Of a stretch of 55,968 nt of DNA, positions 17,076 through 34,725 are shown piece after piece. The notes beneath the pieces were generated by a model. The model saw only the letters and a program-made list of their open reading frames with translations. It did no database searches and had not been told where the DNA came from. Origin of the DNA: a virus (Duplodnaviria > Caudoviricetes); IMG/VR virus record IMGVR_UViG_3300044815_000221, positions 1 through 55,968 of that record, one strand, 5' to 3'. Each line of letters opens with the position of its first letter. The stretch's first letter is position 1. A program made the position numbers and the translations under genes.

Positions 17076-17076
17076 G

Positions 17077-18073: not shown

Positions 18074-18091
18074 CTACTTAACCCTTTTAAG

Positions 18092-19141: not shown

Positions 19142-19389
19142 ACAGAACCAAACCGCCCTTCATCGCGTGGCCTATTTGGAATAAGCAGAATTGTTCCAGC
19201 AGGTATCTGTCTTACGTCTATGATGTTGTTCCTGTCTGCAATAAGCCTCCAAAGTCGCCAGTCATCATAGAAGCGATGTGCCAGTCCCGTAAGCGTGTCA
19301 GCAGCCTTAAAAACATATTCCTCAAGATAAGCGTCGGATTCCGGCGATAGCCCGCCGTAGCGTTCGTATGGTGATATTGAACGGCTCAT
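19138..19389 (-). CDS. LysM baseplate protein (element A)
   Basis: Close paralog of 4213-4464. Confidence 0.9.
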   Translation of the reverse strand: MSRSISPYERYGGLSPESDAYLEEYVFKAADTLTGLAHRFYDDWRLWRLIADRNNIIDVRQIPAGTILLIPNRPRDEGRFGSV

Positions 19390-19391
19390 TG

Positions 19392-21899
19392 CTACGCGCC
19401 TCTCTCTTCGTCTCTATCTTTCTCTTCCGCAATCATGCGCGCCAATTGTCGCGGGTTAAGATTTGAGGCATTGTTAATCTTGATGTCGTACCGATGATGA
19501 TGCGTGTGATGATGCACTCCCCCGCGCGATTCTCTTGCAGAGAGCGATGAATCTGCATATTGACCAGACTCGCGCTGTGGCCTGCCGCCATACATTGCAT
19601 GTATAAGCTCAACTCCACGATCAGGCCGAACATAGCCATGAAGCGAGCCTTGAATTACCGTTGCCCCTTCCTTCTGGTCGCCAGTTGGCGGCGGGTTTGT
19701 TGGTGAAGCATTATTCAGCCGCGAAGCTGAATTGATAATGCTTTCAGTTAGGGTTTTTGACGCCTCTCCTACACTTAAAAAGGCATCGGGAACGGGCAAC
19801 ATCTTTAATTGAAGCTGCTCGAATAGCTGATTGGTTGGTGCTAATTGCTGGCTGAGATTCTGAATCTCTTGAGTTGTTTGCTGCGTCGCTTGGCGGTAGC
19901 TCTCAGGGAAAGCCATCTCAAGAGTTTTTGCCATCATGCCAAACTCATCGGGTTTAAGCTTACTTTTGGTAAGATTAAGAAACTCCCGCATCACATCCGG
20001 CACGGAAAGTTCTTGATGATGTTGCTGAAAATCTGCGGCGGCAACAGGGGCGCTCCAACGCCCTCCGAAGGTGTAAGGGTTCTGCGGTTGAAGCGAAGCG
20101 GCACGCACGACACTCTCAAGCATGTTCACAGTGCGACTACCCTTGAAGGCATCTCCCATGTAATCAATCGTATCGGTTTCGCCAAAATTCCCTACAAGCT
20201 TATCGCGCTTTGAGATGTCAGCCCACGCTGTTTGTGCGTTAGACTTATAAAAATCTTGAGGAACGGGCTGGCCTAACTCAGCATAATGCTTCCGCAGCTT
20301 AAGCAGTGATTTTAGATTGCCGCTGTTCGCGCTATCGGCACCTCTCTGCGCTTCATCAGCAGCGTTTTCGGCCTCGACGTGCTCAATAATTTTGCTGACT
20401 GTATAGACGGTAGCTATTGTGAGACCAATCGGACCAAGCGCACTCAGCGTCCCAAGCTTAGTCAACAGCCCACCTACCGACGCACCTGCACCGCCCGCCT
20501 CCCCACTCAAGCCAGCGAAATATCCGACCAACCCTGAGCCTTTCAAAATAGCGGCAGTTTCAGCGAGAGCAGACAACCCTTTGCCGCCCACAAGAACCGC
20601 AACAGCCCACTTCGCCGCCGTCGGATGCTCTCCAAAAATCTTAACGACAGGCGTTAATGAATCAACAAGTTTGGTTCCAGTTTCTACCAGAGGCTCGCCA
20701 ACTTTCGTCCTGAAATTTTCTAATGCTGCCGTGAACTTCTCAATTTTACCCATTGGCGAATCTAACGCCTGATCGTATGCTTGTCCGATGTCCTTAGATT
20801 TCTCAGTCATTCCTGATTCTTTTAGGACTTGATTCCTTTGCGTGGTAAGCAGGCTCATCATGCGAAAGGCGGTATTCTTCTGGAAAAGCCTGCCTAGCTC
20901 CGCACGCACAGCGTTATCATCGGCGGTATTGATGCCGTGAGTTTTCATCGCCCCCATGAGCATATCGGCGGCTTCTAAGGGGTCGCGCATGAACGGCTCT
21001 GCCAGCTTGTTACCACCTGGAAGAATCCGTTTTATCTTCTGCGCCTTGCCAAACTGAACTTTATTTTTATCAACCAACCCAAGCCGCGAAAATTCCTCTG
21101 CCGCGTATTGAGGCATCACACCTGTTACCAAAGCGCGATAGGATGCCTGCAAAGCCGTTCCCGCTCCTGCTCCTTTCAGTTCCATCAAAACGCTTTGCAT
21201 GTGGCGCAAGCCTTCAACGGATAAACCCTGAGCAGCAGGCGAACCCATGCGAGCGAAATCAAACAACTCCGTAGGAGAAACTTTTCCAGCGCGTGCAGTC
21301 TGCATCTGCACCATCACGTTGAAAAACTTCTCCATCTCATCGCGCCCCTTCGAAACCTTCCCTGTCACTTCAAGAAAGCGGAAAGCTGCGTCGGTTTGCT
21401 TTTCGACTTCTTCGGGGCTGTATTGATCTCCGAGCAGGGTCTTAAGAGAGAATTGATATTTTGAAGCAAGTGGTAATGCTTCTATGGCGTGATCTAAGCT
21501 GCCGAGTGCGGTATGGAGCGTTGCTATCTCAGTGGTCGCATCCGCTAGAGAGATGCCCTGAATGTTCTTGACGGTTTCTTCAACGGCCTTAAATGCGCGT
21601 GCATTCTCAGCAGGGGAAAGATTGATAGCCTGAAACTTGCCCTGTGCTCTGGCAAGTTTCATGTAGGCGTCGGTATAGACGCTCAATGAATCGGCTTGAC
21701 GACGCCACACATCGCCCACGCGGGACAACGGAGCAATGACCCTATCGTGGAGCGAAGCGAGATTGCCGAGAACTCCGGCGTGCTTCGTAGCCGCTCCACC
21801 TAACCTCCCAAGCCGAGCCTCGAATTTATCAAGGCCCTGTGAAGCGCGGTCTTGCAGGCTCAGGAGTATCTTTAGTTCGTATGTTTCACTTCCCGCCAC
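19392..21899 (-). CDS. tape measure protein TMP2 (element A)
   Basis: 835 aa; N-terminus YEL.ILLSL.D.AS.GLD.FE shared with TMP1 and TMP3; GAGAGTAL core; hydrophobic segments. Confidence 0.88.
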   Translation of the reverse strand: MAGSETYELKILLSLQDRASQGLDKFEARLGRLGGAATKHAGVLGNLASLHDRVIAPLSRVGDVWRRQADSLSVYTDAYMKLARAQGKFQAINLSPAENARAFKAVEETVKNIQGISLADATTEIATLHTALGSLDHAIEALPLASKYQFSLKTLLGDQYSPEEVEKQTDAAFRFLEVTGKVSKGRDEMEKFFNVMVQMQTARAGKVSPTELFDFARMGSPAAQGLSVEGLRHMQSVLMELKGAGAGTALQASYRALVTGVMPQYAAEEFSRLGLVDKNKVQFGKAQKIKRILPGGNKLAEPFMRDPLEAADMLMGAMKTHGINTADDNAVRAELGRLFQKNTAFRMMSLLTTQRNQVLKESGMTEKSKDIGQAYDQALDSPMGKIEKFTAALENFRTKVGEPLVETGTKLVDSLTPVVKIFGEHPTAAKWAVAVLVGGKGLSALAETAAILKGSGLVGYFAGLSGEAGGAGASVGGLLTKLGTLSALGPIGLTIATVYTVSKIIEHVEAENAADEAQRGADSANSGNLKSLLKLRKHYAELGQPVPQDFYKSNAQTAWADISKRDKLVGNFGETDTIDYMGDAFKGSRTVNMLESVVRAASLQPQNPYTFGGRWSAPVAAADFQQHHQELSVPDVMREFLNLTKSKLKPDEFGMMAKTLEMAFPESYRQATQQTTQEIQNLSQQLAPTNQLFEQLQLKMLPVPDAFLSVGEASKTLTESIINSASRLNNASPTNPPPTGDQKEGATVIQGSLHGYVRPDRGVELIHAMYGGRPQRESGQYADSSLSARESRGGVHHHTHHHRYDIKINNASNLNPRQLARMIAEEKDRDEERGA

Positions 21900-22056
21900 G
21901 CCTGACCTCGCTTATCTCTTCGACGATCTCTAAATATCCATTGCGCCGTTCAATAGACATCTCAAGGATGTCAGATTCTTTCCAATGAAATTCTCTGGAT
22001 AGAATCGCCACCGTGTAGGCTGTCGTCTTCCTGAATCTTTTTTCTGCTTTTGCGAA
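21886..22056 (-). CDS. frameshift extension of chaperone (element A)
   Basis: +1-frame FAKAEKRFRKTTAYTVAILSREFHWKESDILEMSIERRNGYLE... from TCT-TTT-CGC (22052-22060). Confidence 0.7.
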   Translation of the reverse strand, partial: FAKAEKRFRKTTAYTVAILSREFHWKESDILEMSIERRNGYLEIVEEISEVRRGGK

Positions 22057-22663
22057 AAGATTCCCGCCACCTACGGGCGGCGGCTTCTAAAGCGAAAATA
22101 TCAACCATGTCAAACTGCTTGAAAACTTCTAAATCAAGAGCGCCCTCAATGCGGCCTGCCCCCTCTGATTGTGAAAGCCTGACGACCTGCTGCCCAGCCA
22201 GATAACAAAGCCGCTTGACACCTTCCAGTTCGAGTTTGTCGGCTTCAAGTTCGTGCAGGCCGGTGAGACGCACGCCGAACGTCACCACGTCATAAACAGC
22301 GCCGTTGACTTCATGCCCGAAGGCAAGTTTGACCGTATCATCCGACAGGGACTCGGCAACACGTCCGCCAAGACCGCTCGCAGAAAAGAGATTGTAAGCC
22401 GCCGACAAATCATCTCTATCAATGGCATCCAAATGGAGTAGCCATAATTGAGTAACGGGCATTTTGGCTTCCCCGAATTTAGTAATAGCTTTGGCAAGAA
22501 TCATGTCGCTATAAGTCGTCGCAAGCTTTGCTCGCGGGTCGTCGCCAATGTAAAAAAGGTCAAGCCCTGTTAAGCGATGGCCGAAAGTAACGTCCTTATG
22601 CACCTTGCCTTGCCTGTCCGTGTATCCAATCTCTAGCGTGATGTCGAGCGGTTCAACTTCCAT
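21971..22663 (-). CDS. tail assembly chaperone (element A; start reassigned to 22663)
   Basis: Paralog of 7798-8469; AGGAGA RBS upstream of MEVEP. Confidence 0.78.
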   Translation of the reverse strand: MEVEPLDITLEIGYTDRQGKVHKDVTFGHRLTGLDLFYIGDDPRAKLATTYSDMILAKAITKFGEAKMPVTQLWLLHLDAIDRDDLSAAYNLFSASGLGGRVAESLSDDTVKLAFGHEVNGAVYDVVTFGVRLTGLHELEADKLELEGVKRLCYLAGQQVVRLSQSEGAGRIEGALDLEVFKQFDMVDIFALEAAARRWRESFRKSRKKIQEDDSLHGGDSIQRISLERI

Positions 22664-22689
22664 CTGTTTCTCTCCTAATTTGTAAAAGT

Positions 22690-22788
22690 AAAAGCCCGCC
22701 AACCTTTTCAGGTCAACGGGCTGCATGAGCCGGTAGATACCGCAATTCAGGGACTGTGAAAGTCCGCGAGATATTTGAATTGTTTATA
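22690..22788 (-). promoter_or_regulatory. conserved leader L3 driving element A tail genes
   Basis: - strand TATAAA...GGACT-TTCAC-AGTCC...GGCTCATGCA-GCCCGTTGACC-TGAAAA-GGTTGGCGGGC-TTTT. Confidence 0.82.
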
Positions 22789-22801
22789 GCACGCAGGCTA
22801 T

Positions 22802-23098
22802 CTAAGCGCCATTCCTTTGCTTCCCAAAGATTGCAAAAATAACAAGCAAAACAATCCCACCAAAGACGCCCCACACAACAAGAGCGGACATATGAGCGGA
22901 TTCAATTAAAAAGAGAGCCAAGAGATATAAAACCAAGAAAGCGAACCCCATCTTTACAAGTGCGGCCAGCGCGACGAGAACCGATAAAGCATTTGGCTTT
23001 TTAGGCACAGGCTTCCCACATTGCGGACACATCGCCGCCTGTGTTGAGACTTGCTTGCCGCAATCTGGACAGGTAACTAAAGGCATAACATTACTCAC
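22802..23098 (-). CDS. zinc-ribbon membrane protein (element A)
   Basis: CPDCGKQVS..A..CPQCG plus two hydrophobic helices. Confidence 0.75.
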   Translation of the reverse strand: MSNVMPLVTCPDCGKQVSTQAAMCPQCGKPVPKKPNALSVLVALAALVKMGFAFLVLYLLALFLIESAHMSALVVWGVFGGIVLLVIFAIFGKQRNGA

Positions 23099-23118
23099 TT
23101 CAAATTAGCGGACATTAA

Positions 23119-23334
23119 CTAATCGCTAGAGTCAGGCGAAAAAACAAGAAGATCATTAGGCTTACAGCGTAGCGTCTTACACAAAAGATCAAGCGTACCT
23201 ATTCCTATTTTCTCAAGATCGTTTCGCCACCATTTCGCAGCCATTGAGGGCTGAACGCTTGCAGCTTTTTGTAATTGATACGCAGTTGTAATACCGCGCT
23301 TCTCTGCCATCTCTCGAATAGCAATAGTAATCAT
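23119..23334 (-). CDS. Cro/C1-type HTH repressor (element A)
   Basis: IREMAEKRGITTAYQLQK...TLDLLCKTLRCKPNDLL; TTTACG-17-TAGGAT just upstream suggests a near-leaderless transcript. Confidence 0.85.
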   Translation of the reverse strand: MITIAIREMAEKRGITTAYQLQKAASVQPSMAAKWWRNDLEKIGIGTLDLLCKTLRCKPNDLLVFSPDSSD

Positions 23335-23450
23335 AGAAAGAATCCTAACATTCGCTCCACATTACGTAAAGAAAAAATATCCTTCTAGCGATTACTTGCA
23401 GACGCATTATCTCTTGACATAATAATACGTCTAGGAGTAATATAAGCATG
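23335..23450. promoter_or_regulatory. divergent promoter/operator region (element A)
   Basis: TTGACA (23414) with TAATAT 18 bp downstream; imperfect 20-bp inverted pair at 23391-23410 and 23422-23441. Confidence 0.65.
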
Positions 23451-23503
23451 TCAGTTGGACGTAACAACAAACCACTTTTGCAGAACTCAAGGAGACAAAG
23501 AAA

Positions 23504-23650
23504 ATGAATCGCACGATGAACCAAACCTCAATCAACATCAGCACCACGAACGCCAAGCCGCAGACAGTCAACGCCATCAAGAAAGTCATGGTCTATGACC
23601 TGAGAGGGCAGGGGCGCGCGATTGAGAAGGTGCGTGGGATTCAAGTATAG
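23504..23650 (+). CDS. 48-aa protein, first gene of element A rightward operon (not in the ORF track)
   Basis: MNRTMNQTSINISTTNAKPQTVNAIKKVMVYDLRGQGRAIEKVRGIQV; AAGGAG RBS; near-identical copy at 32623-32769. Confidence 0.7.
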   Translation: MNRTMNQTSINISTTNAKPQTVNAIKKVMVYDLRGQGRAIEKVRGIQV

Positions 23651-23744
23651 CGGGAGGGGATTCCGCTAAAGAGGGGGGCTGGCTGGATATGGGCATCCAG
23701 CCAGCCTCTACACCATTAACCACAACTGTTCGGAGGGGATAACG

Positions 23745-24293
23745 ATGCCAAAAGATTCTACAACACAAGAACATAAACCGCCTGAGATTTGGGTATTCCA
23801 CCCCATTGACAGCAGCGAGGCGAGAGGATTAGCCGAAGTCATCTCAAACAGAATCAACCTGTGGGAGCGTGGAGGTATAGCAGGGTTGCTTATCAAGCTC
23901 CTTGCTGGCTTGGCTGCGAATTGTGACGGTTCAGGAAATGAAAGTTGTGGGTGCGCTGTTGAAGATGTCACATGGCACGCGCTCTTTGAGTTCTTCAAGA
24001 CAACCCAAAAGTTTAATGACACGTTCCATGATTACGTCGTCAACGATTTAAAGATCGCGCACGATTTCAGGAAAGAGGAAGAATCCGAGCCAGTAGCGCA
24101 GCCGGAACGCAAGATGCACTTTGAAGGAACGCTTGAGCGCATCGCCTACATCATCGGCAAGACGCGCTTTCTACTCACAGACCAATGCGAACTAACCGAC
24201 GATGAAGCATTAGGGAAAATCCGCGACTTAATCTCGGAGATGGACTGGCGAAAGGAGGGCGCGGGCGATGAAGAAGAGGCGACCAATAACTGA
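23745..24293 (+). CDS. hypothetical protein (element A)
   Basis: 182 aa, GGAGGGG RBS. Confidence 0.65.
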   Translation: MPKDSTTQEHKPPEIWVFHPIDSSEARGLAEVISNRINLWERGGIAGLLIKLLAGLAANCDGSGNESCGCAVEDVTWHALFEFFKTTQKFNDTFHDYVVNDLKIAHDFRKEEESEPVAQPERKMHFEGTLERIAYIIGKTRFLLTDQCELTDDEALGKIRDLISEMDWRKEGAGDEEEATNN

Positions 24294-24630
24294 CCGCGAA
24301 ATAAGAGCCGCAGTCTTAGAAGCTCAGTTTATCGCATTGGTCATTGAGCACCCGCAAACGCCCGCGCACATTTTAGAGACGGTTAAATACATGGTGCTCG
24401 GCGCTTGTGAGGGGATAGCTAAATACTTGAAAGACCACAACCCCGACGCACAGATGGCGCATGACATTTACCCTTACGGTAGGGCGGCATTAGGCGTCCC
24501 CATGAAGAAGTGCTTCAAAATCTTCATGGAACAGGTTAAGAGTGATGCGCCCAACGTCTTACTCTCAATCATGGAGTCATTACCAAAAAGCGAGGCAAAG
24601 AACGATGAACCTAGCAATCAAACTAAATAG
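24268..24630 (+). CDS. hypothetical protein (element A)
   Basis: 120 aa, AAGGAGG RBS, overlapping operon. Confidence 0.6.
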   Translation: MKKRRPITDREIRAAVLEAQFIALVIEHPQTPAHILETVKYMVLGACEGIAKYLKDHNPDAQMAHDIYPYGRAALGVPMKKCFKIFMEQVKSDAPNVLLSIMESLPKSEAKNDEPSNQTK

Positions 24631-24904
24631 CAACCCCAATCCTGAGCCTTGTCCACTTTGCGGTCAAGAGACTAACCCTAACATCGGCGCAGAGCTAACA
24701 CTGGCTGAGAATGAGCTAGTCGTTTGTCGTGACTGCGGCCTGACTCACGCGCCCCTGCTCGTCTCACTTCTCACGCTTGGTTTTCTCGCCACCGATTACA
24801 GCCTGTGTGAACGCGACTACGGCGACCTCTGGCAAGCCTCGCGTGAAGCTAGTCCGCGTGAAAGCCTGAACTGGAATCAACACTTGGAAGCTGATGCGGC
24901 ATGA
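24605..24904 (+). CDS. zinc-finger protein (CxxC...CxxC), conserved in both elements
   Basis: MNLAIKLNSNP.PEPCPLCG...VCRDCG; near-identical to 34183-34482. Confidence 0.75.
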   Translation: MNLAIKLNSNPNPEPCPLCGQETNPNIGAELTLAENELVVCRDCGLTHAPLLVSLLTLGFLATDYSLCERDYGDLWQASREASPRESLNWNQHLEADAA

Positions 24905-25137
24905 GCGCGGCGATTCTCAACATCAATCTCATCAAGCATCCGTTGGATACTTATTTCGTGAGGTTTGGCGGCTCGATTCTAGTGGTAGATAGAGCCGCCA
25001 TTACAGATGATGGAGATACGGTGATAGTCAGACTTCACGATCAACTCATGGTTACAACACTCAACATTAAAGATGGTAGCGAGCGCGTTGATTATGAAGT
25101 TTGGGGCAAGGTTGCTTATTTCATCTTTGAAGCGTGA
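24901..25137 (+). CDS. truncated S24 (LexA/UmuD)-like domain protein
   Basis: LIKHP.DTYFVR..GSILVVDRA....DGD.VIV...VWGKV; lacks the GDSM segment; copy at 34479-34715. Confidence 0.6.
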   Translation: MSAAILNINLIKHPLDTYFVRFGGSILVVDRAAITDDGDTVIVRLHDQLMVTTLNIKDGSERVDYEVWGKVAYFIFEA

Positions 25138-25178
25138 AGGGAAGGGGCGCACCGTAAAAATGCGCCCCTATTAACACA

Positions 25179-26318
25179 ATGAGAAATCAATTATTAGATT
25201 GTCAAATATCGGAAATTTGTCGGCGGTATCAGGCTGGCGAATCCGCCTCATCCCTTGCAAGAGCATTCAGCGTGAACCATGAAACAATTTGCAATCGCCT
25301 TACTTGGTCGGGCATCAAGCTTCGCAGCCATAAAGAGTCGGCAGCATTAACCGGAAACTTATCCCAACATCAAATCGCTGAAATGGCATCGCTCTACCGC
25401 TCAGGCTCAACAACGCCTCAACTGGCGTCACGATATAAAATCAAGCCTCAATCAATTTCGTATCATCTCAAAAAGCAGGGCGTAGAGTTACGGGAAAGAC
25501 CCGAAGCGCGGCGCAAACATACATTAAACGAAGCGGCGTTTGATTCCCTGAATGAAGAAGGCGCGTACTGGATTGGCTTCTTGATGGCAGATGGTTGTGT
25601 CCATAAGAGAAATGGTGCTTCTCCGCGCATCTCAATAGCTTTAGCGCGTTGTGATATTGAACATCTTGAAGCATTCAAGATGTTCTTAGGAGCATCTAAC
25701 CCAATACACATAGACGGAAATTGCGCTTGCTTTTCGGTTTCCTCAAACAAGCTTTCAAACTCTATTGCAAGATATGGAATCACGCCAAGAAAATCTTTGA
25801 CGGCTAAAGTTATTGACCTTGAACAGAGCAAAGATTTCTGGCGCGGAGTAATTGATGGCGACGGCTCACTGTCAGACATTCAGAGATATTCAGACCTTAA
25901 AACCAAACATAGAACTCAATTATCCCTGCTAGGCTCTCAAGCTTTGATGGAGCAATTTTCGTTATTCGTTCAAAGCATCGCCAACTTCAAGCCTAAAACT
26001 TTTCAGCTTGGAAACATCTTCACGGTGGTTATCAGAGGGGCGACAGCCGCACAAGTTGTAACTGCGCTTTACGCGGATTGTTCGATTGCCCTTCCTAGAA
26101 AACTAAAAAGAGCAAAGAGGATAATTGAAGATTCAAAGAATATCGCACAACGTAAATGCCTAAGATGCGGGCATGTGTGGTTTCCAAATGCAAACAACCA
26201 AGCACCTAAAACATGCTCAAAATGTCGCAGCCAATGCTGGAACATCTCAAAACCTCAAAAGCATTTGCCAATTCATAATGAAGCCAAAAGCTTCTTTAAC
26301 CCAACCTTGCCGCAATGA
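25179..26318 (+). CDS. free-standing two-motif LAGLIDADG endonuclease with N-terminal HTH repeats (element A)
   Basis: AYWIGFLMADGCV and DFWRGVIDGDGSL motifs; C-terminal CLRC...CSKC zinc ribbon. Confidence 0.9.
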   Translation: MRNQLLDCQISEICRRYQAGESASSLARAFSVNHETICNRLTWSGIKLRSHKESAALTGNLSQHQIAEMASLYRSGSTTPQLASRYKIKPQSISYHLKKQGVELRERPEARRKHTLNEAAFDSLNEEGAYWIGFLMADGCVHKRNGASPRISIALARCDIEHLEAFKMFLGASNPIHIDGNCACFSVSSNKLSNSIARYGITPRKSLTAKVIDLEQSKDFWRGVIDGDGSLSDIQRYSDLKTKHRTQLSLLGSQALMEQFSLFVQSIANFKPKTFQLGNIFTVVIRGATAAQVVTALYADCSIALPRKLKRAKRIIEDSKNIAQRKCLRCGHVWFPNANNQAPKTCSKCRSQCWNISKPQKHLPIHNEAKSFFNPTLPQ

Positions 26319-26395
26319 TACGCCGCTCGCATATTCTTTCTAAATAGCACTTCCAAGTGAAGCGGGCTTATCGGATGGCACTCAAAAGTTTTGTC

Positions 26396-26916
26396 AAAAA
26401 TTGTCTCAAGGTGAAACGCTCCAAGCTGCGCCTGACTCGCGCCGTCGAGAATTTCACGAAAGCGTTTAATGGTCTCGCGCTGCGGCGTGCCCTCTTCGAG
26501 TGCGCGTGCAATCTCCGTCTTAAATCCTTCGAGAACGTCATCGCGATAGATGCCGCCAACTGTAAAGGCCGACGCACGCGCTTCATCGCGCAAGTCATCA
26601 AACTCTTTGCGCGTGACAACTTTCTTCCTGCGGAAATACTCAATCGCCTTTGTCGGGGCAACGTCGAACTTGAAGAAATCCTCTTCAGCGAACTCAACCT
26701 GATCGTTGACCTCCGACACCTGATCGCGCCCCAACAGATAAGACGCCAACAATCCATCGCCGAGCACTTCAAAAAGAAGATCGAATGAACCAATAAACTT
26801 TTCAAAGAACAGGGCTGGCAACTTCGCCAGGTTCTCTTGCTTTTCAAGATGGACGATGATTTCGCCTAACGCTTCATCGTAGAAGGGCGCAGCTTCTCGA
26901 AGCGTTCCATCTTCAA
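26396..26916 (-). pseudogene. muF 5' fragment, sandwiched between elements A and B
   Basis: AIEYFRRKK....FDDL.DEARASAFTVGGI...DVL......ALEEG......F.......HLETIF, the typical MuF N-terminal half. Confidence 0.88.
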
Positions 26917-26958
26917 AGGCTCGCCGTCGCCCAACCCCATAAGCGACCTGCATGTTCG

Positions 26959-27252
26959 TCAAACACGCTCGAAAGTTCCGCTCTCAAGCGGCCTTTGCGG
27001 AATCAACAGGAGCGTTCCCGCTTCGATTTGCCGCACGTCCGCGATCCTGTTGCGCTCGGCGATCAAGCGCCACAATCGCCAGTCTGAATAAAAGCGATGC
27101 GCTAAACCTGTCAGCGTGTCGCTTCCTCTGAAAATATATTCAGTACCTGTCAGCGTGTCGCTTCCTCTGAAAATATATTCAGTCAGATAAGCATCCGTCT
27201 CCGGCGACAACTCACCGTAGCGTTCGTATGGGCTAATGCTGCGCTTGCTCAT
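26959..27252 (-). CDS. LysM baseplate protein with 13-aa internal duplication (element B)
   Basis: Paralog of 4213 and 19138; TEYIFRGSDTLTG occurs twice. Confidence 0.85.
   Translation of the reverse strand: MSKRSISPYERYGELSPETDAYLTEYIFRGSDTLTGTEYIFRGSDTLTGLAHRFYSDWRLWRLIAERNRIADVRQIEAGTLLLIPQRPLESGTFERV
27106..27183. repeat. perfect 39-bp tandem duplication
   Basis: ACCTGTCAGCGTGTCGCTTCCTCTGAAAATATATTCAGT at 27106-27144 and 27145-27183. Confidence 0.95.
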
Positions 27253-28343
27253 TCCTCTCCCTCAATATCGGCATAAAGGTCATATTCAGTTGTGAAGCCT
27301 GCGGCAACGAGGTCGTGCGTAACCTTGTCGCAAAGGTACAATCCAGAAAACAGACTGCCAAATTCACGAAGTTCAACAGTATCACCAACATCAGCCCTCA
27401 CGCTTGGAAGCTGCGGAATTGTGCGAACGGTGCAGGAGAAAGAGTGTTCACGTTGAAGCTGTTTTTTTGCATGTGCAACGCGGTCAGCATAGCTTTGAGT
27501 GTGGTTCGCAATATCTTTCTGTAAAAAGACGTTGCCTGTGCCGCGCTTGTGCTTCCGAGATTTGCCGACGAGTGATTTACCGCCATGCCCGCGCCCGCGC
27601 ACTTCAACCACAGACGGACGCCCCCGCTTATTTTCAGGAAGCTTATAACTGAGGTCAAAGGGGCGGAGCAGCAACGCATCTTTTCTATAAGTCAAAACTA
27701 TTAATGGCTTTCTTTTGACTATGGCTGGCTCTTTTGCAAAGAGCGTATCACCTCTTACATAAAGAACGAGGCCGATTTCTCGCGCCCGCTCACTAGCCAA
27801 GTCCCAATCGGTTTGACCAGCCTGCATGTAAGAACGGTGGTGTCCTATCCTAAACTCTCTGTCAGGTCCTTCAAACTTTAGCTCACTACGTTCAGCGAGC
27901 TTCTTGAGAATTTTAAGGTCATCTCCCTTGTGGTATCCGGCATGTTCCATCTGCCGCATTTTGTAGCCCATATCATAGGCTCTTAAAGTTATGTCCGTTT
28001 CACTCTTTTCTATCCGCGCCAGCATCCCCTTGAAAACAGGCTCTCCCAATCCTTGACCAAAACCCATCCAGCAGCGCATCTCAAAAGGCAGAACTTCTTT
28101 TATTCCTAAAAGGCTGTCAACGAATTTGCCCGTTGAATCAAAGACCCTGAAAGCCGCCTCTGATGCCATGCCCGTTGTTAGCTGAACGGTAACTTGCTTG
28201 AACAGTCGAGGATGCCGCCAAGAATCCCAAACCTGCTGCCGAAGGATGATTTTGTCACCATGCTTGTCACGCGCATACTTGCCATGCTCATCATGTTTAT
28301 AAACCGTCAATTCTATTGCGGCGTGTGGGTTGTCGGGCGTCAT
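27249..28343 (-). CDS. baseplate hub gpD-like (element B)
   Basis: Paralog of 3179 and 18092 (WDSW.HP.LF, QTDWDLA.ERA...GLVLYVRG, GLYLCDKV.HD). Confidence 0.85.
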   Translation of the reverse strand: MTPDNPHAAIELTVYKHDEHGKYARDKHGDKIILRQQVWDSWRHPRLFKQVTVQLTTGMASEAAFRVFDSTGKFVDSLLGIKEVLPFEMRCWMGFGQGLGEPVFKGMLARIEKSETDITLRAYDMGYKMRQMEHAGYHKGDDLKILKKLAERSELKFEGPDREFRIGHHRSYMQAGQTDWDLASERAREIGLVLYVRGDTLFAKEPAIVKRKPLIVLTYRKDALLLRPFDLSYKLPENKRGRPSVVEVRGRGHGGKSLVGKSRKHKRGTGNVFLQKDIANHTQSYADRVAHAKKQLQREHSFSCTVRTIPQLPSVRADVGDTVELREFGSLFSGLYLCDKVTHDLVAAGFTTEYDLYADIEGEE

Positions 28344-30961
28344 CCTTCACCCCTTTCTCTATACCTATCTATCCGGTTTGAAAGTCGCGCCTCAACTATG
28401 TTTGTAAGTTGGTGTGCGTGTTCTTCAAGCAACGCCGCGAACTGTTGAGGGCTGCTGCCATCGCCTTTGATTTCAAGTTTCGGAGAGTAGGTAATATGAA
28501 CGTGCGTATCTCCGCCTTTCATAAGACCCCTTGCAAGACCTGCATTGAGCGCGGATGTGTTTAATTTAGACGGAGGATATTCAAATGTATTTTTGCCAAG
28601 CAGATTCAATGACGGAATCGGCGCAGGCGTGGGAGTAGGGCTTGGCTGAACCCCGCCGCTCGGTAAAGGAACATTATTCAATCGTGAGGCTGAGTTATTG
28701 AAGCTATCGGTTAAAGAGGTGGCCGCGCCTCCCAAATTGGAGAAGCTGGAAGGAAGAGGAAATAGCTGCGATTGAAGTTGACCGAAATACTGATTAGTAG
28801 GTATCAGTTGTTGGCTTAAATTCTGAAAACCTTCGGTTGCTTGTTGGGTTGGCTGTCTCAACCCCTCTATCTCTTTTTGATACTCCTGCCATGCCTTAGA
28901 GAATCCAACCGGAAATTCCTTTTGCAGTGACTTGTAAAGGTCGGGCGTAGCCTGTGGTGTCAAGCCAAGCTTGCCTAACTGGGCAAAGGCTTGGCGCATC
29001 ACTTTAGGGTCGTCGAGCATTGGCGCAACATGCCTAAAAATTCCGCCTGCTTTATCAGGGTCAAACGTATTAAATACATTCCAACGTGAGCCATAGGGGC
29101 GGTCAGCAGTCCAAGCATGGCCCCAGAAGCCTCCGAACTTTTCAGGCATGAGTGCAGATTCTAGTTCCTGCTTTCGATTTATTGCTTCAACTGCTTTTTG
29201 AGCAAGACCCCTTGAATCATCTCCCGATGTGTCTATCCCAAGAAGGCGGTTTGACCGTTGCCGCGATTTATAATCTGCAAACGACTCGCCCGATGATTTC
29301 GCAAAGTCACGCCTATCAGCCTCTCGCTTATCGTATTCGTCTTTTAATTCGAGCAGCTTTTCTAACGCCATCCCTGCAACCGTAAGCTTCAATGCCACAG
29401 TGAACGGCGATGATGTCAAAGATGTGAGCTTGCCTTTTAGACCCGATAATTTGCTTTCGGTTGACTTGATGGCATCACTAACAACGGGTGTTGATTTCTG
29501 CCATGCGCTTGTAAAGCCGATTGTTCTTTTCTCAGCCACTACTAATGAATCGCCTAGCCCTCTAGCTCCTTTGTCGCTATTGGAGAAGAAGCTGAATAAC
29601 TTAGAAGTGCCGAGAATGGTTGCCGTTTCTGCTATTCCACCTAATGCCTTACCACCGACAATCAGCCCTAAAGACCAGTTCGGATGATCGGACATCCATT
29701 GAAAGAAAGGCAAAGCTTTGGTTGCTAATTGCGTTCCAACTTCAACAAGCGGCTTCCCAACGCCAGCGCGAAAATTCTCAACCGACGCCTTATACTGTTC
29801 AAGCTTGCCCTGTGCCGAATCTAGCGCTTGCTTATTAAGCTCATCAACGCCTGTTGATTTTTCGGCAAGCCCAGATTCTTTTAAGACTTGATTCCTTTGC
29901 GTGGTAAGCAGGCTCATCATCCGAAAAGCAGTACTCTTCTGGAAAAGCAACCCTAGCTCCGCGCGAACAGCGTTATCATCGGCGGTATTGATGCCGTGAG
30001 TTTTCATCGCCCCCATGAGCATATCGGCAGCTTCTAAGGGGTCGCGCATGAACGGCTCTGCCAGCTTGTTACCGCCAGGTAGAATCCGTTTTATCTTCTG
30101 AGCCTTACCAAACTGAACTTTGTTTTTATCAACTAACCCAAGCCGCGAAAATTCCTCTGCCGCGTATTGCGGCGTCACGCCAGTAACCATAGCGCGATAA
30201 CCTGACAGCAAAGCCGTTCCCGCTCCCGCTCCTTTCAGTTCCATCAAAACGCTTTGCATGTGGCGCAAGCCTTCAACAGATAAGCCCTGAGCGGCAGGCG
30301 AACCCATGCGAGCGAAATCAAACAACTCAGTAGGAGAAACCTTTCCAGCGCGTGCAGTTTGCATCTGCACCATCACGTTGAAATACTTCTCCATCTCAGC
30401 GCGCCCCTTCGCAACCTTCCCCGTCACTTCAAGAAAGCGGAAAGCTGCGTCGGTCTGCTTTTCAATCTCTTCTGTGCTGTATTGATCTCCAAATTTAGCC
30501 TTAAAGCCAAACTCGTACTTAGTAGCAAGAGGCAAGGCTTCAATGGCCTCATCTAAACTACCGAGTGCGGTATGTAGGGTTGTTATCGCGGTTGTCGTGT
30601 CCGTGAGGGAGAGGCCGCCCAAACTTTGTACGTTTTTTCGGACGGCATCAAACGCCTTCGCGTTGTCAGATGGTGATAGATTTATAGCCTCGAACTTACC
30701 TTGCGCTCTCAAAAGCCTCATGTAAGCATCGGTGTAATCCTCAAGAGAATCAATTCGATTCTTCCAAACAGAACTAACACGCGCAATAGGGTCAAAGACT
30801 TCGTTGTGAAGCTTTGAGAGATGGCCGAGCGTTCCGGCATACTTCGCCGTCGTCCCGCCTAGCCCGTGAAGCTTCTTCTCGAATTTATCAAGCCCCACCG
30901 ATGCCCTATCTTGGAGGGATAGCAGAATTGATAATTCATATACTGAACCTGAATTTCCCAT
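28340..30961 (-). CDS. tape measure protein TMP3 (element B)
   Basis: 873 aa; core nearly identical to TMP2; C-terminal GGDTH.HI.YSPK.EI motif shared with TMP1. Confidence 0.88.
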   Translation of the reverse strand: MGNSGSVYELSILLSLQDRASVGLDKFEKKLHGLGGTTAKYAGTLGHLSKLHNEVFDPIARVSSVWKNRIDSLEDYTDAYMRLLRAQGKFEAINLSPSDNAKAFDAVRKNVQSLGGLSLTDTTTAITTLHTALGSLDEAIEALPLATKYEFGFKAKFGDQYSTEEIEKQTDAAFRFLEVTGKVAKGRAEMEKYFNVMVQMQTARAGKVSPTELFDFARMGSPAAQGLSVEGLRHMQSVLMELKGAGAGTALLSGYRAMVTGVTPQYAAEEFSRLGLVDKNKVQFGKAQKIKRILPGGNKLAEPFMRDPLEAADMLMGAMKTHGINTADDNAVRAELGLLFQKSTAFRMMSLLTTQRNQVLKESGLAEKSTGVDELNKQALDSAQGKLEQYKASVENFRAGVGKPLVEVGTQLATKALPFFQWMSDHPNWSLGLIVGGKALGGIAETATILGTSKLFSFFSNSDKGARGLGDSLVVAEKRTIGFTSAWQKSTPVVSDAIKSTESKLSGLKGKLTSLTSSPFTVALKLTVAGMALEKLLELKDEYDKREADRRDFAKSSGESFADYKSRQRSNRLLGIDTSGDDSRGLAQKAVEAINRKQELESALMPEKFGGFWGHAWTADRPYGSRWNVFNTFDPDKAGGIFRHVAPMLDDPKVMRQAFAQLGKLGLTPQATPDLYKSLQKEFPVGFSKAWQEYQKEIEGLRQPTQQATEGFQNLSQQLIPTNQYFGQLQSQLFPLPSSFSNLGGAATSLTDSFNNSASRLNNVPLPSGGVQPSPTPTPAPIPSLNLLGKNTFEYPPSKLNTSALNAGLARGLMKGGDTHVHITYSPKLEIKGDGSSPQQFAALLEEHAHQLTNIVEARLSNRIDRYRERGEG

Positions 30962-30973
30962 TGCTCTTTATCT

Positions 30974-31639
30974 CTACTGTGCTGCGGTTGGATTGTTGGC
31001 TTGCCTTTGGGCTAAACGCTCTGCCCGAACTGACAGCATCCACAGTTCGCTGTGAGACAAAATCGCTAAAACGTCTATGCCAGCCAAATCATCAAAAGCC
31101 CTTACATCAAGCAAGCCTTCCACAACTTTTTCACCGTTGCTTTGACGCAGGCGCACAATCTCACGACCCGCCAGAAAACATCTCATCCTTGACGCAGACT
31201 CGCGCTCGCTCTTTTCAGCATCAACGACATCACGCCCCGTCAAGACTCGCCCGAACTCCACGACATCAAAAACATCGCCGTTGACTTCATACCCGTAAAC
31301 AAGTTTGAGAGAGTTACTGCTGAGAGGCTGCGGTTCGCCGTGTTGCCCGACGAAGTTATTGTAGGCTTCAACTAAATCTTCAAGGTCAATCGAATCAAGG
31401 TCTAAAAGAACTCCTCGACTAACAGGAATAGGAAGGTCGCCAAATTTAGTAATAGCTCTTTCCAGTGCTAAGACGTTGAAAAGCGTCTCGCCCTTTTCAT
31501 TTCGATACCTCATATTCATTTCAATTAAAAAGAGGTCGCCGCCTTTAAGCAGGCTACCGATGGTGACATCTTTGTGATTCACCTCGCCTTTATCAGTATG
31601 ACCAACTTCCAGCGTTACTTTGACAGGAGATGCTTCCAT
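30974..31639 (-). CDS. tail assembly chaperone (element B), no GT extension
   Basis: Paralog of 7798 and 21971; shift-site equivalent reads TCA-GTT-CGG. Confidence 0.78.
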   Translation of the reverse strand: MEASPVKVTLEVGHTDKGEVNHKDVTIGSLLKGGDLFLIEMNMRYRNEKGETLFNVLALERAITKFGDLPIPVSRGVLLDLDSIDLEDLVEAYNNFVGQHGEPQPLSSNSLKLVYGYEVNGDVFDVVEFGRVLTGRDVVDAEKSERESASRMRCFLAGREIVRLRQSNGEKVVEGLLDVRAFDDLAGIDVLAILSHSELWMLSVRAERLAQRQANNPTAAQ

Positions 31640-31668
31640 GATTCGTTCCTTTCGATGTGATAAATAAG

Positions 31669-31770
31669 AAAAAGCCCGCCAACCTTTTCAGGCCAACGGG
31701 CTGCACATGAGCCGCTAATGATCGCTATTTAGGGACTGTGAAAGTCCGCAAGATTTCGGGATGAATATAG
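31669..31770 (-). promoter_or_regulatory. conserved leader L4 driving element B tail genes
   Basis: - strand TATATT...GGACT-TTCAC-AGTCC...GGCTCATGTGCA-GCCCGTTGGCC-TGAAAA-GGTTGGCGGGC-TTTTT. Confidence 0.82.
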
Positions 31771-31793
31771 AGCGTGAGAGATATTAGAGCAAA

Positions 31794-32003
31794 TTAAATT
31801 CCCCTTGTATTGCGTTCGACAGGCCACCGGACAAAAGCAAACACAAAAAGAGCAATGAGGTTGATTATAGGAATTAACACAATCAAACTATACCAACCTG
31901 AAAAACCAGCCTTTGTGCAAATTCGCCAAAGCGGAACGATGAAAACAACACAGACGAAGGCAAGCAAAAACAGTTCAGTAGTTCCTATATTCTCAAATCT
32001 CAT
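31794..32003 (-). CDS. small membrane protein (element B)
   Basis: IVPLWRIC.KAGFSGW.SL...IPIINLI.L..FAF..WP; two or three TM helices. Confidence 0.75.
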   Translation of the reverse strand: MRFENIGTTELFLLAFVCVVFIVPLWRICTKAGFSGWYSLIVLIPIINLIALFVFAFVRWPVERNTRGI

Positions 32004-32230
32004 CTCTGCCCTTCCTCATCGGTTTCAGCTTGAGCCTCAACAATCTTCTCAAGCTTTTTAGCATCGAACGTGCCTGCAATCGTGCCGTCAGGAAGCATGA
32101 TGACAGCCGTGTAAGTTGCGCCTCTCGCGTCGCTGTGAGTGTTCGTTCTAAGCACCATGCCAATCTTCCCCGCATAGCGTCCAGAGGGAACGCGCACATT
32201 ATCTTCAACATCAACCATAGCACCGCTCAC
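32000..32230 (-). CDS. small KOW-motif-like protein (element B)
   Basis: DNVRVPSGRYAGKIGMV resembles the KOW motif. Confidence 0.55.
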   Translation of the reverse strand: MSGAMVDVEDNVRVPSGRYAGKIGMVLRTNTHSDARGATYTAVIMLPDGTIAGTFDAKKLEKIVEAQAETDEEGQR

Positions 32231-32433
32231 TTCTTGCTAGGCTTCTTCTTGCTTTTATTTTTAGCATGATTGCGCTCAATAGTTTCCAGCGCAAGCGATA
32301 GATATTCCGGTATAGAGCGTGCGCCGCGCTCCCAACGTGAAACAGTCATAATGTCCACGCCCAAAGCCTCTGCCAGTTGCCCCTGAGTAAAACCAAGCGA
32401 CTCACGCCTCTGTTTTAATTCATCACCGCTCAT
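32227..32433 (-). CDS. XRE-family HTH repressor (element B; start reassigned to 32433)
   Basis: ELKQRRESLGFTQGQLAEALGVDIMTVSRWERG; TTGACG-17-TAGACT just upstream. Confidence 0.88.
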   Translation of the reverse strand: MSGDELKQRRESLGFTQGQLAEALGVDIMTVSRWERGARSIPEYLSLALETIERNHAKNKSKKKPSKK

Positions 32434-32444
32434 ATGTCGAAGTC

Positions 32445-32562
32445 TATGCCAATGGCCTACTAGCGTCAAGAATCTTTTACGCAGAGGCGAACGAAGGACA
32501 AATGTTAATTAGGCCAATGGCCTAATTATATTGTTGACATCATTAGGCCATTGGCCTATACT
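32445..32562. promoter_or_regulatory. three palindromic operators TAGGCCAWTGGCCTA over divergent promoters (element B)
   Basis: Copies at 32445-32459 (1 mismatch), 32506-32528 (23-bp palindrome) and 32544-32558, the last inside TTGACA-17-TATACT. Confidence 0.85.
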
Positions 32563-32622
32563 ATATTCATCAGTTGGACGTAACAACAAATCACTTTTGC
32601 AGAACTCAAGGAGACAAAGAAG

Positions 32623-32769
32623 ATGAATCACACGACGAACCAAACCTCAATCAACATCAACACCACGAACGCCAAGCCGCAGACAGTCAACGCCATCAAG
32701 AAAGTCATGGTCTATGACTTGAGAGGGCAGGGGCGCGCGATTGAGAAGATGCGTGGGATTCAGATTTAA
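32623..32769 (+). CDS. 48-aa protein (element B copy)
   Basis: Near-identical to 23504-23650. Confidence 0.7.
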   Translation: MNHTTNQTSININTTNAKPQTVNAIKKVMVYDLRGQGRAIEKMRGIQI

Positions 32770-32786
32770 GTAGCGGGAGGGGAACA

Positions 32787-33218
32787 ATGCCGAGAAAGAA
32801 TATCACAACGAAGAAACAACGGCGCAGATACAAAGACGTAAACAGGGATTATGAAGAAGAGTCCAACCTTGAAAACGTCAACCTCACAGATTTTGTAACT
32901 CAACACCCGACGCTGACCTTCTTGATGATGGTTGAAGATAGCTATAACGGGGGATTTGGAATACTGGCTGGCGATATTCTTATCGTCAATCGAGCCATCA
33001 AGCCACAAGTCGGCGACCTTGTAGTTGTTGAGCATTTGGGAGAGTCCATCATCGGAAAAATTGAGATTGAGAACGGAGAGTATTGGTTAAGCGATAACAA
33101 TATCTTAAGACTCTTTAGGGGTGACACCGTAACGCTTGGCCTCTCCGACCTTGATGAAGATGTCTTTGGAAGGATTACTCATTTAATCCGTGATTTCCGA
33201 GATGGAGGCAAGCAATGA
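32787..33218 (+). CDS. UmuD/LexA S24-like protein
   Basis: HP..TFLM.VEDS....GI..GDILIVNRAI.P..GDLVV...G.....K...FG.ITH.I. Confidence 0.7.
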   Translation: MPRKNITTKKQRRRYKDVNRDYEEESNLENVNLTDFVTQHPTLTFLMMVEDSYNGGFGILAGDILIVNRAIKPQVGDLVVVEHLGESIIGKIEIENGEYWLSDNNILRLFRGDTVTLGLSDLDEDVFGRITHLIRDFRDGGKQ

Positions 33219-33613
33219 ATCGCAAAGTCTCCATCACATACAACGTTGAAGAACTTTTCAGCTTGGCTGGCGACCAACCGACCCCAACAACGCACCACTT
33301 TCTCGCAACACGTACCGCCGTCGAACATCTACACGGCCTCATGGTGTTGCTTTCATTCATCGGCCACACCGAAACCTTTCAGACTATCGAAGATCGCAAC
33401 TTAGACGCCTTGACGGGCGCTCTGCGCTTGGTTGGAGAACTCGGCGCGGCTATCGGAGAACAATGCGGCGTGCGGTTCAACGACTTCGCGCAAGCGATGA
33501 AGAATCGGGTTCACGAAGTTGCCACAGAGTCAATGTTTGCGGAGCGCGAGCAGGCAAAGAGGCGAGCCGAATTTAAGAAGGAGGGCGCGAGCGATGAAAC
33601 CAGCAGAGGATAA
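33215..33613 (+). CDS. hypothetical protein (element B)
   Basis: 132 aa, GGAGG RBS, ATGA overlap. Confidence 0.65.
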   Translation: MNRKVSITYNVEELFSLAGDQPTPTTHHFLATRTAVEHLHGLMVLLSFIGHTETFQTIEDRNLDALTGALRLVGELGAAIGEQCGVRFNDFAQAMKNRVHEVATESMFAEREQAKRRAEFKKEGASDETSRG

Positions 33614-33878
33614 CAAACACGGCTTCAAAGCCATCGAGAGCGATGATGAAGTGAGCTATCTGGTTACTCAAATCTTGCAATCCGACAACGATCTCGGCGC
33701 GGTTTGCCTCATCTCGCTGTTGGGCAAAGTTGCGTATGCCAGCGAACCAAGCAAGACCGACGCGATTAGAAATGCCGCCAACCAAGCCCACTACTACACG
33801 AGCGAATTTGATAATGCCATTGAACGGCTAATTATGCAGGCGGTTAACCACAAATGGAATGGAGGCGATGAAGAGTGA
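33594..33878 (+). CDS. hypothetical helical protein, paralog of next gene
   Basis: FKAI..D.EV..LV.QIL.....GAV.LI.L.G..AY. Confidence 0.65.
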   Translation: MKPAEDNKHGFKAIESDDEVSYLVTQILQSDNDLGAVCLISLLGKVAYASEPSKTDAIRNAANQAHYYTSEFDNAIERLIMQAVNHKWNGGDEE

Positions 33879-34186
33879 TGAAAAGCAACCTTGAGCTTGA
33901 ACGCCAGAAAAGGCTAGAGAAGCTAAGTAACCCTTACAACTTCAAATCCATCACGGATGAAGAAGCCGCGCATCTAGTCGCACAAATTCTGTGGGCAAGT
34001 CAAAGCATCGGCGCAGTCGCATTGATCGCTCTCATCGGCAGCATTGCCTATGAAGAGAATCTTGTCCACAAGTGTGACCTCATCAGACACGCCGCGAACG
34101 AAGCCTATACAGCAACTATGGACTTTGATGAATCGGCGGAGAGCTTCATCAGAAAAACAGCTAAGAATTGGAGGAACGCGAAATGA
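33875..34186 (+). CDS. hypothetical helical protein, paralog of previous gene
   Basis: FKSI..EE...LV.QIL.....GAV.LI.L.G.IAY...R.AAN.A. Confidence 0.65.
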   Translation: MMKSNLELERQKRLEKLSNPYNFKSITDEEAAHLVAQILWASQSIGAVALIALIGSIAYEENLVHKCDLIRHAANEAYTATMDFDESAESFIRKTAKNWRNAK

Positions 34187-34482
34187 ATCTAGCAATCAAA
34201 CTAAACAGCAACCCAATCCCTGAACCCTGCCCGCTCTGCGGTCAGGAAACCAATCCCAACATCGGCGCGGAATTGACGTTAGCCGAAAATGAGCTAGTTG
34301 TCTGTCGTGACTGTGGATTGACTCACGCGCCCGTACTCGTCTCACTTCTCACGCTTGGGTTTCTCGCCAACGATTACACCTTATGCGAGCGTGACTTTGG
34401 CGACCTCTGGCAAGCCTCGCGTGAAACGCGCCCGCGTGAAAGCCTGAACTGGAATCAACACTTGAAAGCTGATGCGGCATGA
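34183..34482 (+). CDS. zinc-finger protein (element B copy)
   Basis: Near-identical to 24605-24904. Confidence 0.75.
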   Translation: MNLAIKLNSNPIPEPCPLCGQETNPNIGAELTLAENELVVCRDCGLTHAPVLVSLLTLGFLANDYTLCERDFGDLWQASRETRPRESLNWNQHLKADAA

Positions 34483-34715
34483 GTGCGGCGATTCTCAACA
34501 TCAATCTCATCAAGCATCCGTTGGATACTTATTTCGTGAGATACGGCGGCTCGATTCTAGTGATAGATAGAGCCGCCATTACAGACGATGGCGACACAGT
34601 GATAGTCAGACTTCACGATCAACTGATGGTTACAACACTCAATATTAAAGATGGTAGCGAGCGCGTCGATTTTGAAGTGTGGGGCAAGGTTTCTTATTTC
34701 ATCTTTGAAGCGTGA
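34479..34715 (+). CDS. truncated S24-like protein (element B copy)
   Basis: Near-identical to 24901-25137. Confidence 0.6.
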   Translation: MSAAILNINLIKHPLDTYFVRYGGSILVIDRAAITDDGDTVIVRLHDQLMVTTLNIKDGSERVDFEVWGKVSYFIFEA

Positions 34716-34725
34716 GGGGCAAGTT

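Follow-up and report, generated by a model that had tools for sequence, protein, structure and literature searches.

A muF relic at the edge of a LAGLIDADG endonuclease cassette as the probable footprint of ectopic relocation in a Mu-like prophage

How does a homing endonuclease cassette come to lie beside, rather than inside, the gene that it appears to target? The question is raised by the portal-muF region of a metagenome-derived provirus (IMG/VR record IMGVR_UViG_3300044815_000221; Duplodnaviria; Caudoviricetes), the whole stretch of which, 55,968 nt, was analyzed and is called the window below. The prophage is of the transposable Mu-like myovirus type, its genome is read on the minus strand, and its gene set comprises a Mu-type transposase C-domain protein, an AAA partner, terminase, Mu-type portal, muF, capsid, sheath, and a tail module. 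The same order of head genes is found in prophages of MAGs labelled Acidobacteriota (Blastocatellia, Pyrinomonadaceae). The portal-muF region of the window carries two insertions. Element A (17076–26395, minus; 9.3 kb) is situated inside muF, between the residues HLETIF and RTN, and separates an N-part (26396–26909, minus; DGTLREAAP to HLETIF) from a C-part (16650–17075, minus; starting RTNCQVAYGVGRRQAFEE). Element B (26960–35910, minus, for the element proper; about 8.95 kb) lies between the portal gene (35895–37352, minus) and the muF N-part. A first-pass annotation had proposed that B once abutted the same muF site in a sister phage, and that a 7-bp direct repeat bounds it and marks the crossover by which it was stacked upstream. 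Alignment of the portal-muF regions of related prophages, the check suggested there, upholds the relic of muF at the end of B and the same-site origin, but not the 7-bp boundaries.

Elements A and B are collinear homologs, with repeat families 60–96% identical at the nucleotide level and proteins 41–95% identical. On the plus strand, both hold a LAGLIDADG_3 endonuclease gene with HTH repeats near the portal-proximal end, an S24/UmuD-like gene, and unknown small ORFs; on the minus strand, both hold paralogs of the phage's own tail core (chaperone-like, tape measure, LysM, and hub-like genes). The spike and the CIS_tube protein are additional in A, and an HTH regulator on the minus strand is additional in B, which contains the LAGLIDADG endonuclease, S24/UmuD-like, HTH, and small ORFs, and then TAC-like, tape-measure-like, hub-like, and LysM genes. 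By predicted gene content, both elements are cassettes of a LAGLIDADG endonuclease with paralogous tail-core genes as cargo. No match to transposase or integrase families was obtained among the B ORFs scanned, and no integrase, transposase, intron, or tRNA was found in the two cassettes; in the window as a whole, no Rfam family reached the threshold and the tRNA scan was empty. With a length of 9 kb, genes on both strands, stops in the muF frame, and no Rfam match, neither element looks like a group I/II intron or an intein.

The gene order of the tail core differs among its copies: TMP-LysM-hub-spike-tube in A (17077–22726), TMP-hub-LysM in B (26959–31639), and TMP, tube, a 245-nt gap (possibly a LysM gene), hub, and spike in the phage's own core (2684–8469). 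The tape measures of the three copies are 835, 873, and 791 aa long. A 193-nt stretch is 96% identical between A (23451–23643) and B (32570–32762). In B, it is flanked by the HTH gene (minus) and the S24/UmuD-like gene (plus), which diverge from it, and a common operator/promoter region or recent gene conversion is the probable explanation. The LysM gene of B contains a perfect 39-nt tandem duplication (13 codons; 27106–27183). The ORF best conserved between A and B (24542–24904) has no match in 401 genomes of the phylum.

The position of A is that of a recurrent insertion site. Intact muF relatives (~281 aa) read GAFHLETIF RTNMQMAYGVGRRRALEE across it. The gene is intact in 11 loci (L164–L174) and split at HLETIF/RTN in the window and in P0004, P0035, P0164, P0169, and P0170. 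Two of these, P0004 and P0035, are N-halves that end at HLETV/HLETI and continue into foreign sequence; the other three are C-halves, whose called start is the Met of TNMQ or a residue two positions later. All five halves, from contigs of 13–133 kb, are cut at the same place. An endonuclease gene adjoins the split muF in the window and in a second case, where the muF half P0004 and the endonuclease P0051 have consecutive accessions. Judging from these splits, the HLETIF/RTN site is used repeatedly.

At its 5′ end (26306–26371, minus), A adds to the muF N-half a copy of the target segment that is degenerate but remains open (LHLEVLFRKNMRAAYHCGK vs. FHLETIFRTNMQMAYGVGR; for each of four references, its score is reached by 0 of 2000 shuffles). 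Such a copy is also present in P0004 and P0035, and B is without it; it looks selected rather than decayed. An N-terminal extension of the muF-C ORF was considered as a second degenerate target copy but is not significant, its score being reached in 1843 and 1983 of 2000 shuffles. The two junctions of A (17070–17093 and 26386–26409) have in common a direct repeat, imperfect and roughly 20 nt long (ACA.TTTT.AC.A.AACT), which is not significant either (84 of 1000 shuffles).

The endonuclease of B, HE-B (34651–35892, plus), contains a LAGLIDADG_3 domain and three HTH repeats, and its gene stops 18 nt from the left junction of the element. The Pfam LAGLIDADG_3 scores are 24.8 bits for HE-B and 24.3 bits for its counterpart in A, HE-A (cutoff 22.5). 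In an alignment of 16 sequences that contains both proteins, the motifs GFLMADG and WRG..DGDG do not vary, as expected of two-motif LAGLIDADG members. Profile search yielded weak matches to 2dch (annotated "putative homing endonuclease") and I-AniI, and single-sequence search found no PDB match. Both proteins are assigned to the LAGLIDADG homing endonucleases by domain and by their position at the edge of a presence/absence insertion, cleavage being predicted. HE-B is 50% identical to P0048 and 47% to P0051, and HE-A is 54–60% identical to P0045, P0051, P0044, and P0048. With the window's own records set aside (P0042 for HE-B, P0046 for HE-A), P0051 and P0048 are among the best 10 of the 433 homologs of HE-B. 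Both are tied to split muF, P0048 through the C-half P0169 and only by contigs of the same length (119,422), which is a hint of co-location. Its closest relatives thus place HE-B in a predicted muF-site clade.

In viral contigs, a single-protein scan with muF-N gave one distant locus, and scans with the portal and HE-B gave no matches. Endonuclease-profile scans of metagenome and viral contigs yielded 159 loci (L005–L163) of at most 45% identity, with no muF or cassette tail genes nearby; the only match to 24 window proteins was a capsid gene in L029. These homologs evidently serve other predicted targets. HE-B had no match in the genomes of five relatives, and the endonuclease profile matched 15 of 401 genomes of the class, with cassette genes in 1 (L191) of 10 regions fetched. 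Distant relatives of the cassettes occur elsewhere, namely, in the tail module (L191), upstream of the portal (L164), and at the 3′ end of muF (L172). The site specificity that the first-pass annotation had ascribed to the cassettes therefore seems to hold for this endonuclease clade, with its recurrent muF splits, but not for the cassette family.

The three distant loci differ in layout. In the tail module of L191 (3045–16309), a homologous LAGLIDADG gene has a LysM gene on one side and a second set of TAC and tape measure on the other, and hence that prophage has two tape measures in tandem. In L164 (2–3078), the 3′ end of a tape measure gene, a hub, a spike, a P_174-like gene, and a LysM gene are situated directly upstream of the portal, where the terminase would be expected. 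In L172 (4774–14131), an intact muF is followed by a block of about 9 kb. One gene of the block, HTH plus REase_MTES_1575-like, is read from the opposite strand; the others include a TAC-like gene and a tape measure of 934 aa, which shares 70% identity over 434 aa with that of the window phage, and residues 95–172 of the muF C-terminus recur here as a second copy.

The evidence that B, too, derives from the muF site lies at its end. Right after the LysM stop, the element reads TNMQVAYGVGRRRAFE; on the minus strand, the stretch from 26962 to 26910 begins with TTG ACG AAC ATG, ends with TTT GAA GA, and overlaps the LysM stop codon (TGA, 26961–26959). The encoded peptide, TNMQVAYGVGRRRAFE, runs in frame into DGTLREAAP. 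It corresponds to the 3′ flank of the HLETIF/RTN site: intact relatives read HLETIF/RTNMQ(M/V)AYGVGRRRA.E, and positions 26910–26959 are identical to the resident muF just downstream of A (17023–17072) in 39 of 50 nt, including the uninterrupted run of 17 that the first-pass annotation had noted. Apart from these two copies (17038–17054 and 26925–26941), the 17-mer is absent from the window, and shuffled sequences average 0.13 matches at ≤3 mismatches. We refer to the muF-derived stretch carried with B (TNMQVAYGVGRRRAF; 26917–26959, minus) as the relic.

The relic appears to be a foreign allele and not a copy of the resident one. Its peptide is closer than that of the resident allele to the family consensus (RTNMQMAYGVGRRRA.E), having M rather than C and R rather than Q. 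At the DNA level, the relic matches seven relatives in 34–38 of 50 nt, below the 39 of 50 for the resident allele; AF is common to relic and resident allele, and the relatives have AL. The start of the relic is within one codon of the start of the flank of A. We conclude that the relic is, by these comparisons, a sister allele of the muF exon just 3′ of the insertion site, as had been proposed. The former location of B next to RTN in a sister phage is likewise well supported, by the relic together with the recurrent splits of muF at the same place. TNMQVAYGVG upstream of (L)EDG in relatives lacking B, the arrangement named beforehand as contradicting this reading, was found in 0 of 9 such relatives.

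The boundaries of B tell a different story from the one first drawn. The heptamer TCTTCAA is indeed present at 26910–26916 and 35918–35924, but the word is common: 43 copies were counted in the window, 29 of them on this strand, vs. 13 expected. Nine relatives have an uninterrupted portal-muF junction, which in the muF frame reads KKKARR(V/I)ER(K/Q)(V/I)E(E/Q)AA(E/G)(L/V)E(D/E)G(A/T)L..AAP.YD; P0023 reads ALEEAVAIEDGAIFEAAAVYD. The segment x-E-(E/Q)-A-A-(E/G)-(L/V)-E-(D/E)-G is thus retained in 9/9 relatives and P0023. The window, in turn, reads KKKAQTIERQIEEAA followed by R and a stop to the left of B, and AF followed by EDGTLREAAPFYD to the right.

The junctions were mapped by local alignments of the window flanks to seven relatives. 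The left flank is collinear with the native sequence up to approximately 35911–35912 (position −4) in the two relatives aligning that far (L167, L168), i.e., collinearity extends 6–7 nt past the left heptamer. The AGCCGCT that follows this heptamer (E-A-A) is native, matching the consensus A GCC GCN exactly. The left junction is therefore situated between 35911 and 35910, next to the native portal/muF sequence TTGAAGAAGCCGCT (35911–35924, minus; I-E-E-A-A in the muF frame) that holds the left TCTTCAA, and no homology is visible there. The right flank is native from 26916 (position +1) in five of seven relatives, and the right junction (26910–26916, minus) consists of a TTGAAGA common to the relic (AFE-E) and the native LE-D, i.e., 7 nt of microhomology. 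Only the right heptamer sits on a junction; the left TTGAAGA encodes I-E-E and the right one L-E-D, which in the native sequence are distinct sites separated by 18 nt. Placed on that sequence, the ends of the insert are 4 nt from each other, and about 4 native nt (GAGC, of E-L) are missing if the ancestor had the same length as the relatives.

Hence the repeat is no boundary signal, and a PCR for the circle or the empty site designed on it would target the wrong junction. A transposon or IS with target-site duplication is likewise not what the element resembles: the left heptamer is off the junction, terminal inverted repeats at the element ends are not significant (371 and 705 of 1000 shuffles reach the score), and there is no transposase match. 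The 5′ edge of B (LKKPLDDVA-stop) was also considered as a homolog of that of A (LKKLLASL-stop) and rejected, the shared bases being explained by the native junction sequence.

The stretch is represented in the Logan contigs of only one run, which is probably the source sample, so these are not independent data. One contig covers 24933–27135 with 0 mismatches, crossing the right junction of B and the 5′ junction of A, and depth is even (5.8–13.2) across 30/30 bins of 16500–36400. Thus, the right junction is not an artifact of the window's own assembler, and A and B occur in one prophage at equal depth, which bears out the earlier suggestion that cassettes can accumulate. Among the contig pieces listed (8 of 30), the left junction of B is absent and the sole joint, 31713 to 16500, looks like a repeat artifact.

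Microhomology-mediated capture of DNA at a double-strand break is a general mechanism, and insert ends 4 nt apart, one-sided microhomology, and few bases lost form the pattern of single-break capture. We consider it probable that B and its muF flank were captured at a single break in the portal/muF overlap by illegitimate, microhomology-assisted repair. The relic, the positions of both junctions, the missing bases, and the in-frame fusion are read from the DNA itself; the donor, the break, and the repair route are what we infer from them. The donor would be a sister Mu-like phage with B at the HLETIF/RTN site of muF, as A is here. In the recipient, this site would already have been filled by A, making ordinary homing there impossible. 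The segment moved would extend from 18 nt beyond the endonuclease stop to about 45–50 nt into the downstream muF exon. It may have been captured at one double-strand break or acquired by template switching during break repair, the AFE-E codons pairing with the native LE-D over TTGAAGA at the right junction and the left junction being formed without visible homology, with loss of about 4 native nt (GAGC). The empty site would then read GAAGAAGCCGCT-GAGC-TTGAAGATGG.

Two observations speak against capture. Firstly, the left TTGAAGA is specific to the window (0/7 relatives compared have it), and its presence 7 nt from the junction has to be taken as a coincidence, with a chance of about 2% for a 40-nt span at the frequency of this word by our own arithmetic. 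Secondly, TTGAAGAAGCCGCT resembles the AFEEVA codons of muF (12/13 with the resident allele), and this stretch could therefore conceivably be muF-derived. The donor is hypothetical: no B-like cassette (>50% identity) was found at RTN or elsewhere in the contig and genome scans.

An alternative is the one originally put forward, that B entered from a circle or by unequal exchange at both TTGAAGA copies, the heptamers being its true ends and the empty site reading CAGATTGAAGATGGAACG (QIEDG) or CAGATTGAAGATGG. The heptamer is found at both places, the circle junction would read AFEEAA, which is muF-like, and the rejoined sequence is in frame in both the portal and muF frames. Removing the interval, however, does not restore a native site, since the rejoined QIEDG loses the 18 nt (six codons, E-A-A-E-L-E) kept in all nine relatives and P0023, and 7 of these 18 nt, matching the native consensus exactly, still stand to the left of B. 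Together with the abundance of the word, this makes such a crossover improbable. Neither a circle joint nor an empty-site joint was found in the contigs of the run, which is weak evidence, as contigs drop rare forms.

We regard as equally improbable a scheme in two steps, in which unequal exchange between the muF AFEE and LED codons yields an array portal-muFN-B-relic-muFN-A, and the upstream muF-N is then deleted with the original 5′ end of B. The right junction does offer the 7-nt match needed, and B lacks the degenerate target copy held by A, P0004, and P0035 at the 5′ end, as if it were truncated. Still, two events would be needed, only by coincidence could the left end of the deletion lie 4 nt from the homologous counterpart of the first crossover point, and exchange between the two copies of muF-N would sooner remove B itself.

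Nor does it seem likely that HE-B or HE-A recognizes the portal/muF junction, as a second cognate site or off target, and that a 4-nt staggered cut there led to the homing or capture of B. LAGLIDADG enzymes leave 4-nt 3′ overhangs, and the approximately 4 nt missing would fit; but the junction has no resemblance to HLETIF/RTN by eye, the relic places the earlier home of B at RTN, and no further cassette was seen at this junction in the loci examined. P0025, a muF protein from a 1.7-kb contig whose N-terminus is unrelated up to about 7 codons downstream of the insertion point of B, may represent another insertion at this junction and is a point in favor of the second-site explanation. Finally, an assembly chimera of two strains, one with B at RTN and one with A, would suit a metagenome-derived provirus whose cassettes share 92–96% identical stretches, but it is most implausible, as neither the bases shared at the joins (7 nt and 0 nt) nor the longest exact muF match (17 nt) comes anywhere near the word sizes used by assemblers, and a separate contig crosses two of the junctions at even depth.

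Under the preferred capture at a single break, the insertion also bears on how muF is expressed. In eight of nine relatives, the open muF frame reaches back 14–46 codons from (L/V)E(D/E)G with no ATG, GTG, or TTG, and the portal frame, offset by one base, ends 16–19 codons further on (8/9). All nine have a run of A8–A10 situated 34–71 nt upstream. L169 is the only case of the nine in which portal and muF form one frame, a direct fusion. Differences between L164 and L165 in the junction stretch, as read from their alignment, fall on third positions of the muF frame. The missing start codon, the A-run, and the third-position differences together suggest that translation of muF normally depends on a −1 shift from the portal. 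In the window, the portal-frame A_AAA_AAG (35946–35952, minus; run 35946–35956) is a candidate for such a site, which would join portal to MuF, and B is about 35 nt downstream of it. B ends the muF-frame extension at R and a stop and supplies the last codons of the portal gene (L DDVA-stop), so that the native tail of the portal 0-frame (LKMERFEKLRPSTMKR and stop) is now to the right of B, at approximately 26916–26866.

The relic is fused in frame with muF-N and provides its first in-frame ATG, the Met of TNMQ (26951–26953, minus); a TTG at 26960–26962 overlaps the LysM stop. In other contigs, the called start of the C-halves P0169 and P0170 is this Met. That the relic brings the ATG which starts muF C-halves elsewhere is probably why the fusion survived; this ATG would now start muF-N, separated by B from the frame that lay upstream of it. 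Selection for the fusion is plausible, and its being in frame has a one-in-three chance of arising by accident.

A bolder interpretation, which we offer tentatively, is that the cassettes are homing-endonuclease-driven spare-tail-core modules (chaperone, tape measure, hub, LysM protein, spike, tube initiator) with built-in adapters, and that the relic Met was re-used to re-express muF-N after the portal-MuF −1 fusion had been severed. The adapters, a similarly speculative component, would be the recoded target copy completing the N-half and the exon's own Met as a portable start of the downstream half. If so, the relic would be a working part, not a scar, and cassettes could stack without killing the phage. 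On the other hand, the prophage part of the window is about 36.5 kb without the cassettes, vs. 55–56 kb for the window itself, and phage Mu packages about 39 kb by headful. With a head capacity like that of Mu, the prophage could not package itself, and in such a grounded prophage the stacking of cassettes might merely be tolerated.

We regard the finding as the footprint of ectopic relocation of a homing cassette, a scar that is ordinary in itself, although the cassette that left it is of an unusual kind. In the relic we have direct evidence, at the sequence level, for the joint movement of a 9-kb endonuclease cassette and part of its target exon. When the cognate site is occupied, a cassette is able to land outside it, which provides one concrete route for pile-up in phage head-gene regions.

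Compared with break capture in general, the likenesses are the loss of few target bases, 7 nt of microhomology at one junction, and the lack of a target duplication and of terminal repeats; the difference is that the piece is a whole homing cassette with an exon flank and the outcome an in-frame gene fusion. Free-standing homing endonuclease genes are known to split nrdA of Aeromonas phage Aeh1 (mobE) and the topoisomerase genes 39/60 of T4 (mobA). As here, the insertion is in a conserved coding sequence, the halves are separate ORFs, and the downstream half acquires a new start. Those insertions, however, are a lone endonuclease gene, whereas here about 9 kb with at least 10 genes is inserted, the 5′ end of A adds a degenerate target copy to the N-half, and the working halves are putative. 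Direct portal-MuF fusions with one product have been described in Microbacterium phages (PMC7302621). There, portal and MuF-like functions are joined in one frame; in the relatives studied here, they would be joined by a −1 shift at a slippery A-run upstream of a muF frame without a start in eight of nine cases, and directly only in L169. A literature search by title and abstract retrieved no paper describing LAGLIDADG cassettes in muF or a portal-muF frameshift.

The nearest published concept is the HEG-island, in which endonuclease genes flank essential virion operons and the large cargo includes tail operons, fragments of essential genes are kept as proposed recombination substrates, and equivalent positions can be taken by different endonuclease classes (Barth, Dunham and Seed 2023, PMC10055350). 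The cassettes described here share with it an endonuclease gene beside an essential virion gene, a large tail cargo, and small fragments of an essential gene, i.e., the relic, the degenerate target copy in the 5′ end of A, and the second muF C-piece in L172. The exchange of endonuclease classes may have a parallel in L172 as well, with its HTH plus PD-(D/E)XK-like gene. The endonucleases of HEG-islands are situated at both ends, whereas each cassette here has one, at the portal-proximal end, with no nuclease family match at the other end. The cargo also differs, being a resident operon in the islands and a paralogous extra copy of the tail core inside a head gene here. The present case would thus widen the HEG-island concept, which would come to include LAGLIDADG enzymes, a cargo duplicating the tail core, and transposable Mu-like prophages of soil Acidobacteriota, in one of which two such cassettes are stacked.
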